From a virus (Duplodnaviria; Heunggongvirae; Uroviricota; Caudoviricetes), in IMG/VR virus record IMGVR_UViG_2695420458_000022: 2,424 nt of DNA. One strand, 5' to 3'. A model generated the notes under the pieces. That model saw only the letters and a list, made by a program, of their open reading frames with translations, was not told the DNA's origin and ran no database searches. A program made the translations under genes and the position numbers. Below are positions 2,156 to 2,424 of the stretch, piece by piece (position 1 is the stretch's first letter; each line of letters opens with the position of its first letter).

Positions 2156-2180
2156 AAGCCGCCTGATGGCGGTTTTTTCT
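2156..2180 (+). terminator. Rho-independent (intrinsic) terminator
   Basis: GC-rich stem CCGCC (2159-2163) / GGCGG (2168-2172) with 4-nt loop TGAT, extendable by a G-U and two A-U pairs, followed immediately by TTTTTTCT (2173-2180). Located 64 nt after the zinc-ribbon gene stop and 44 nt before the next start. Confidence 0.75.
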
Positions 2181-2223
2181 TGCCTGATTTGCAGGTTCGA
2201 TTCCCTATTCGGAGATAGCACTC

Positions 2224-2424
2224 ATGCAACACGAACTACAACCTGATTCACTGGTTGATTTGAAATTCATCATGGCCGATACTGGCTTTGGTAAAACCTT
2301 CATCTACGACCGGATTAAGTCCGGCGACCTGCCAAAAGCCAAAGTTATCCACGGTCGAGCAAGATGGTTATATCGTGACCATTGTGAATTCAAAAATAAG
2401 CTCTTAAGCCGCGCCAATGGGTAA
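2224..2424 (+). CDS. AlpA-family phage transcriptional regulator / excisionase-like (Xis/Vis-type) protein (66 aa)
   Basis: Shine-Dalgarno GGAGA at 2211-2215, 8 nt before ATG 2224. Translation carries the AlpA-type helix-turn-helix signature (DLKFIMADTGFGKTFIYDRIKSGDLPKAKVIHGRARWLYRDH, matching the family pattern TG-x-S/G-x3-IY-x2-I-x2-G-x-F/LP-x-P/A-x4-G-x-R-x2-W). Size is typical for the family. Stop TAA at 2422-2424. Confidence 0.85.
   Translation: MQHELQPDSLVDLKFIMADTGFGKTFIYDRIKSGDLPKAKVIHGRARWLYRDHCEFKNKLLSRANG

Follow-up and report, generated by a model that had tools for sequence, protein, structure and literature searches.

The torI gene at the distal end of a lambda-like phage operon, very probably the excisionase of an IntS/TorI module for integration at argW

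Identity of the gene at 2224-2424

What is encoded by the short gene that closes a run of phage genes, and whether an integrase gene and the boundary of the mobile element should be sought just beyond it, is the question raised by the 3' end of the window, that is, the whole stretch of 2,424 nucleotides of Caudoviricetes DNA analysed here. The sequence-only reading of this stretch located the open reading frame (ORF) exactly, from the ATG at 2224 to the TAA at 2422-2424 on the + strand (66 amino acids), and it predicted an AlpA-family gene, either an excisionase or a transcriptional activator, with an integrase gene immediately downstream and an att site after that.

The product was found to be identical over all of its residues (66/66, E 6.6e-43) to the 'Tor inhibition protein' of E. 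coli K-12 (PDB 1Z4H_A) and, because of this identity, the ORF can be accepted as a real gene, a chance ORF being excluded. The same protein is named torI in RefSeq (WP_001163428.1) in many E. coli genomes at matching loci, and, at the DNA level, 2180-2424 shows 96-99% identity to hkaC of HK620, gene 18 of Sf6, xis of Kapi1 and others, relatives that carry such labels as 'response regulator inhibitor TorI' or 'excisionase'. TorI of KplE1/CPS-53 (b4501, PDB 1Z4H), HkaC of HK620 and gp18 of Sf6 are one and the same protein (66/66), and the torI genes of KplE1, HK620 and Sf6 share with the window an identical leader and the first bases of the att arm, and presumably also the position right before the P arm. 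A Shine-Dalgarno element GGAG, as read from the sequence, is located at 2211-2214 (+ strand), 9 nt 5' of the torI ATG. The gene at 2224-2424 is, with very little doubt, torI, encoding the recombination directionality factor (RDF), or excisionase, and anti-TorR protein of an IntS/TorI module that inserts at the 3' terminus of argW, a tRNA-Arg gene.

Such modules are used at argW by KplE1/CPS-53, HK620, Sf6, Kapi1 and many lambdoid prophages (PMC3509656, PMC2951348, PMC8787464). TorI has been described as the RDF of KplE1, with HkaC and P18 being 100% identical to it; its expression alone suffices for excision, and it binds IntS as well as TorR, while the anti-TorR activity is independent of recombination (PMC3509656). 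Five TorI sites, with the cores GTTCG, GATCG and GTCCG, were mapped on attL, the 16-nt att core was given as CTGCAGGGGACACCAT, the arm-type sites of IntS in the P' arm were shown to have TAAA in common, and the intS promoter to be repressed by both IntS and TorI; in the same work, the organization of the module was called 'unusual' and the torI promoter was described as uncharacterized (PMC2951348). Accepting the literature on the identical protein, the product encoded in the window would bind the five GTTCG-type sites in the P' arm of attL and contact IntS, would steer the IntS-catalysed attL x attR recombination towards excision, would co-repress the intS promoter, which overlaps attL, and would bind the response regulator TorR, with the induction of torCAD being blocked.

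The choice between an excisionase and an activator, which the sequence-only reading had held to be undecidable, is settled since the protein is identical to an experimentally tested RDF that represses intS (PMC3509656, PMC2951348); of the two options, that of an excisionase is borne out by the 66/66 identity. Excision upon overexpression and binding to att DNA, the two experiments once proposed as checks, can be found in the literature for the identical protein (PMC3509656, PMC2951348). Accordingly, with the structure, the RDF activity, the anti-TorR activity and the repression of intS all in print, nothing about the biology of torI itself is new here.

Upstream backbone, module junction and torI leader

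All substantial ORFs of the window lie on the + strand, and six genes precede torI. By Pfam, these include DUF1382/lambda orf63 (1-192), a TraR/DksA zinc finger protein (583-804), Ead/Ea22 (801-1172) and a 215-aa dATP/dGTP pyrophosphohydrolase fused to DUF551 (1169-1816), followed by a 59-aa Eag zinc ribbon protein (1913-2092), so named in RefSeq and with a weak Lar-like match. The remaining gene is a 71-aa ORF (269-484) with no Pfam family above threshold; its best match is ZapA (16.1 bits, E 0.014, below threshold), it is matched by PHROG 303 (no known function), and one RefSeq genome has it annotated as 'cell division protein ZapA'. The genes at 1169-1816 and 1913-2092 fill the region between the Ea22-like gene and a block shared with lambda, where lambda itself has ea8.5 and a small predicted ORF, and over 1000 blocks in the contig collection list the 215-aa pyrophosphohydrolase-DUF551 protein.

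In megablast, the match of lambda covers 1-2192, divided into two pieces of about 96.6% identity, and many E. coli prophages match the window from 1 to 2178 or 2192 at 98-99.9%. By these matches, the window is assigned to the distal exo-xis end of a lambda-like pL operon. In this respect, it differs from the other carriers of the identical torI: the window has the lambda-type exo-xis backbone, with the pyrophosphohydrolase-DUF551 and Eag genes, whereas yfdT/ypdJ precede torI in K-12, and hkaD/gene 19 in the P22-like podoviruses.

An intrinsic-terminator-like element, consisting of a hairpin (2156-2175) with an 8-bp stem containing five G-C pairs and of a T run, occupies 2156-2180 (+ strand), between the Eag-like gene and torI, and is identical in lambda, where it stands upstream of xis, and in HK620 and Sf6. 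The earlier description of torI as the 3' end of a same-strand operon holds, then, for the orientation of the six upstream genes, all on the + strand, but the gene is set apart from them by this hairpin. The element belongs to a 65-bp block (2119-2183) that, by alignment, is common to lambda, HK620, Sf6 and the window. The identity to lambda ends at 2183, KplE1 shares sequence from the T run onward only, and the record of Sf6 contains a 'boundary sequence' (bsq2) from approximately position 2181 of the window through torI. The start of the TorI/IntS module, a mosaic junction, is accordingly placed at about 2183 from these comparisons. In other E. coli, the same backbone (1 to 2178-2192) is joined to the lambda-type Xis and Int (Exc and Phage_integrase families), and for that reason the 65-bp block looks like a recombination linker by which integration modules may be exchanged.

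The Xis protein of lambda is similar to TorI in being an RDF for a tyrosine integrase, encoded at the same place of the pL operon and preceded by the identical 65-bp block. However, the lambda order is xis-int-attP, with overlapping genes, whereas in the module of the type considered here attP is found between the RDF gene and int, and int, unlike that of lambda, has an autoregulated promoter of its own (PMC2951348).

Expression of torI would be expected from N-antiterminated read-through of pL transcription across the hairpin at 2156-2180. Rho-dependent termination reportedly limits torI expression in KplE1, as Menouni et al. are said to have described in PNAS in 2013. An integration promoter, 'pI', is annotated in HK620 and Sf6 upstream of the gene that is now known to encode the excisionase. 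This annotation of a CII-activated promoter, equivalent to approximately 2179-2217 of the window, is doubtful: the TTGC repeats are spaced by N5, against N6 in lambda, the second TTGC is not conserved in the divergent modules, and no sigma-70 promoter was found by a consensus scan of 1800-2424. A search of the whole window against Rfam, with E up to 10, yielded no match near threshold; the best one, to the Salmonella sRNA STnc130, lies on the - strand at 2147-2274 (24.3 bits, threshold 55, E about 1), opposite the 5' end of torI in antisense orientation, and is most likely due to chance.

The leader of torI contains a T-loop-like element of 16 nt, TTGCAGGTTCGATTCC, at 2189-2204 (+ strand), which is identical to the segment of the argW T-arm immediately 5' of the att core and overlaps the first C of the core. 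There is one exact match to it and none in any of 200 shuffles, even with two mismatches allowed, and the element is also found in KplE1, HK620 and Sf6. The motif bears GGTTCGATTC within the torI leader. The decamer GGTTCGATTY recurs without change at 19-20 nt 5' of the ATG in divergent TorI modules (60-85% protein identity) of nine lineages, while the leader around it varies; these are the E. coli group, Enterobacter, a metagenome-assembled genome (MAG), Serratia, Citrobacter, Pantoea, Edwardsiella, Pantoea stewartii and Hafnia. A GGAG-type element (GGAG; AGGAG in Serratia) is likewise present in the divergent leaders with the motif. The decamer is absent from the leaders of Dryocola, Tatumella, Arsenophonus, other Pantoea, Proteus, Cronobacter and Klebsiella. 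The motif includes GTTCG, as do the cores of the mapped TorI sites, and it resembles the TorI site I4, which is assigned here to GGTTCGCTTC by the spacing in the published map (PMC2951348). No mention of the motif was found in the papers cited here by their PMC numbers.

That the element at 2189-2204 is a functional cis element, and not a neutral scar, is a tentative suggestion from this conservation and is rather doubtful as yet. Its function would most likely be that of a putative operator by which TorI controls the synthesis of the RDF, since a GTTCG of the kind seen in the TorI site cores occurs in it; an alternative is a candidate binding site of IntS, given that it resembles the attB side of the core. 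The element may possibly be also a vestige of an ancestral attP in which argW was represented by 31 nt or more, and which the RDF gene split later on by its insertion. An RNA hairpin of the T-arm type was considered for the motif as well and rejected: the stem can be formed in Edwardsiella and Serratia, but not in E. coli, and the structure is thus not conserved.

The att site, the place of intS and the status of this copy

The boundary of the element just past the window, which had been foreseen from the sequence, is made probable by all seven of the relatives aligned or inspected (7/7), in which a P arm of 74 nt comes after the torI stop, and after it the 15-16-nt core CTGCAGGGGACACCA(T), equal to the 3' terminus of argW, a tRNA-Arg gene. 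By comparison with HK620, the six bases GGGTAA at the end of the window (2419-2424, + strand) open the first GGGTAAAA repeat in the att P arm; they coincide with the final sense codon, GGG, and the stop codon, TAA, of torI. In the record of HK620, the annotated attP repeat begins 7 nt before the hkaC stop; six copies of GGGTAAAA, of which one has a single mismatch, are found in its attP region, and 11 matches over the whole HK620 locus, against 3.7 expected. Because the GGGTAAAA repeats begin inside the last torI codons, positions 2419-2424 may be regarded as att DNA already. As in every relative, attP or attR would begin at the torI stop, with the crossover core 75-90 nt past the end of the window. 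The expected continuation after 2424, as predicted from the relatives, is AATAGCGGGTAAAAT...GATGTCTGCAGGGGACACCA, that is, AATAGCGGGTAAAATATTTCTCAC...AAGTAGATGT and then CTGCAGGGGACACCA at +75 to +89; in a virion, circular or tandem form, TTTATCAGTTCG would be expected to follow the core, with the ATG of intS at about +251.

The order of an integrase gene immediately downstream and then att, as originally predicted, does not agree with the relatives, which show torI, attP and intS in this succession (HK620, Sf6; PMC2951348). In both HK620 and Sf6, torI, the 74-nt P arm, the core, the P' arm with the int promoter, and int follow one another on one strand, and the ATG of int lies 250 nt past the torI stop, beyond attP. 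In Kapi1, attP has been likewise described between xis and int (PMC8787464). In integrated prophages, the series of genes closes with torI, and past the 74 nt and the core there is host DNA: dsdC in K-12, where intS is 10 kb off, beside argW, and, in MS 119-7, in Z1323HEC0393 and in two IMG/VR contigs, the csc genes. The expectation of a tRNA-associated att repeat downstream was right as to the 15-16-nt core, though argW itself is to be found at the attL/intS end; ARAGORN detected no tRNA or tmRNA gene downstream of torI in five loci, and none in 22 of the 23 loci of the species survey.

How often intS adjoins torI was assessed with a query of 415 nt centred on the HK620 attP core, which was compared with complete E. 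coli genomes. The contiguous arrangement torI-attP-intS was found in just 17 of the 1901 matching genomes, i.e. 99% have the split form, and in the median matching genome the query falls on two separate places. The contiguous E. coli hits listed include records of 39.4 kb, 29.7 kb and 12.8 kb, one record of 178.9 kb, and chromosomal sites; the one chromosomal case looked at was a tandem-prophage junction. Among the phage records, 17 of 25 are contiguous, the remainder being deposited in the prophage permutation. A longer contiguity query of 1608 nt was uninformative, with intS alone making up more than 80% of it.

Of the 23 loci surveyed in species-representative genomes, only the one of Proteus hauseri has an adjacent integrase that is IntS-like (61% identity); there, its gene is convergent with the torI homologue and lies beside a tRNA-Arg(CCT), in a different layout of the module. 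In another five of the 23 loci, a distant integrase or a fragment of one (27-46% identity to IntS) is encoded about 270-300 nt after the torI homologue, on the same strand and just past attR; these presumably belong to neighbouring tandem islands at the same tRNA site (argW). The proposal that the lack of an integrase gene within a few kb downstream would speak against an excisionase is to be abandoned: with 17 contiguous cases in 1901 genomes, it would wrongly reject a genuine RDF, since the split form prevails in prophages. Conversely, an integrase found downstream need not be the cognate one, because of the distant integrases past attR in five of the 23 loci.

As to the copy in the window, no single locus containing the full window was found by exact-pattern scans of IMG/VR or by an exact-protein look-up of the 215-aa product; the backbones identical to 1-2178 carry the lambda-type Xis and Int, and the contigs with an identical torI differ upstream. 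The att site and the cognate intS of this element are extrapolated here from its relatives. Four IMG/VR contigs with an identical torI end exactly at the torI stop, at the same base as the window, and may be provirus calls trimmed at the gene boundary. An integrated prophage is a likelier source of the window than a virion genome, and torI would then be the last gene beside attR, with the cognate intS at the far, argW end.

A virion or circular genome, or else a tandem junction, is an unlikely though not negligible source, for which intS would lie about 250 nt past the window, after attP. The contiguous form on which such an origin depends is that of the 17 phage records and the 17 E. coli genomes mentioned above; however, the backbone 1-2182 is best matched by chromosomal lambda-like prophages, the four IMG/VR contigs stop at the torI stop just like the window, and 99% of the matching E. 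coli genomes are of the split form.

Somewhat less probable still is an orphan torI, separated from the cognate intS and attL by rearrangement or decay and persisting as a passenger or as a modulator of TorR only, a role with which the recombination-independent anti-TorR activity would be compatible (PMC3509656). The closest match to the 3' part of the window, 99.8% over 1850-2424, is in Z1323HEC0393 (NZ_CP148357.1, 1.82-1.89 Mb), whose torI prophage borders at its opposite side on ybhB/bioA, the lambda att locus, and has no integrase at that end, and insertions of IS elements are found in the same region of MS 119-7. With torI-attR beside csc/dsd on one side, the Z1323HEC0393 prophage looks like a hybrid from the recombination of two prophages, in which torI was orphaned from intS. 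Against such a fate of the present copy, the two separate places in the median E. coli genome fit an intact attL and attR, and the window has torI, the leader of the gene and the initial bases of the att arm in intact form; the identity of the gene would, moreover, be unchanged by it.

Family label and consequences for annotation

The label 'AlpA-family' is acceptable as far as the broad excisionase-type helix-turn-helix (HTH) class is meant, but it does not suit TorI specifically, which scored 12.7 bits (E 0.12) against Phage_AlpA of Pfam (PF05930), below the gathering cut-off of 21, while the AlpA of K-12, the positive control in the same run, scored 83.9 bits. The match to HTH_17, the excisionase-type HTH family (PF12728), was likewise below its cut-off (16.9 bits, E 0.0079, cut-off 27); one N-terminally extended database copy of TorI has a precomputed PF12728 match, and a distant relationship to HTH_17 is plausible. 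No match of TorI to Exc (PF07825), the profile of the lambda Xis, was found at E up to 10; lambda Xis belongs to that family, unlike TorI. A significant match was obtained with PHROG 66, 'excisionase and transcriptional regulator' (E 2.7e-8, 34.9 bits), and in BLASTP only 20 residues of TorI could be aligned with the K-12 AlpA, six of them identical. Some sources call the 79-85%-identical homologues of TorI 'AlpA family transcriptional regulator'. By the Pfam profiles, TorI is classed here as a distant relative inside the broad excisionase-type HTH class, outside the AlpA family proper.

The AlpA protein of CP4-57 is similar to TorI in being a small prophage HTH protein of the same broad PHROG/HTH class that influences excision. 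However, the annotation of AlpA is that of a DNA-binding transcriptional activator, its gene lying about 1.2 kb downstream of intA with yfjH in between, whereas TorI serves as an architectural RDF and represses intS. In CP4-57, AlpA activates intA. That the protein of the window acts, in the same manner, as a transcriptional activator of an adjacent integrase gene and not as an architectural excisionase is highly improbable: the HTH fold of the same broad class, the name of PHROG 66, the 'AlpA family' labels of some homologues and the transcriptional regulation by TorI, which is real (PMC2951348), speak in its favour, but TorI misses the PF05930 threshold where AlpA itself reaches 83.9 bits, just 6 of 20 aligned residues are shared with AlpA, the integrase gene is not adjacent to torI in prophages, and the identical protein represses intS and is needed as an RDF in vitro and in vivo (PMC2951348, PMC3509656). 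A functional parallel to the excisionase TorI is given by Vis of P4, Apl of 186 and Cox of P2, which combine, like TorI, the functions of an excisionase and a repressor, although their att and gene layouts are different; the likeness drawn here is one of function. P4 was grouped with KplE1 for the control of the integrase gene by an RDF in the discussion of PMC2951348.

The IntS/TorI modules are very common in E. coli and related enterobacteria, and the rule by which an excisionase gene is followed by the integrase gene next door and then by att fails for this class, because attP sits between torI and intS. A prophage caller based on this rule misplaces the boundary of the element and may wrongly dismiss the RDF, and an unrelated integrase of a tandem island just past attR, as at five of the 23 species loci, may mislead it further. 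A provirus call that is cut back to the gene boundary is deprived of the 74-nt P arm and of the core, with att starting at the torI stop. If, in addition, the T-loop-like element of the leader is indeed an operator for TorI or IntS, the module would possess an extra layer of autoregulation.
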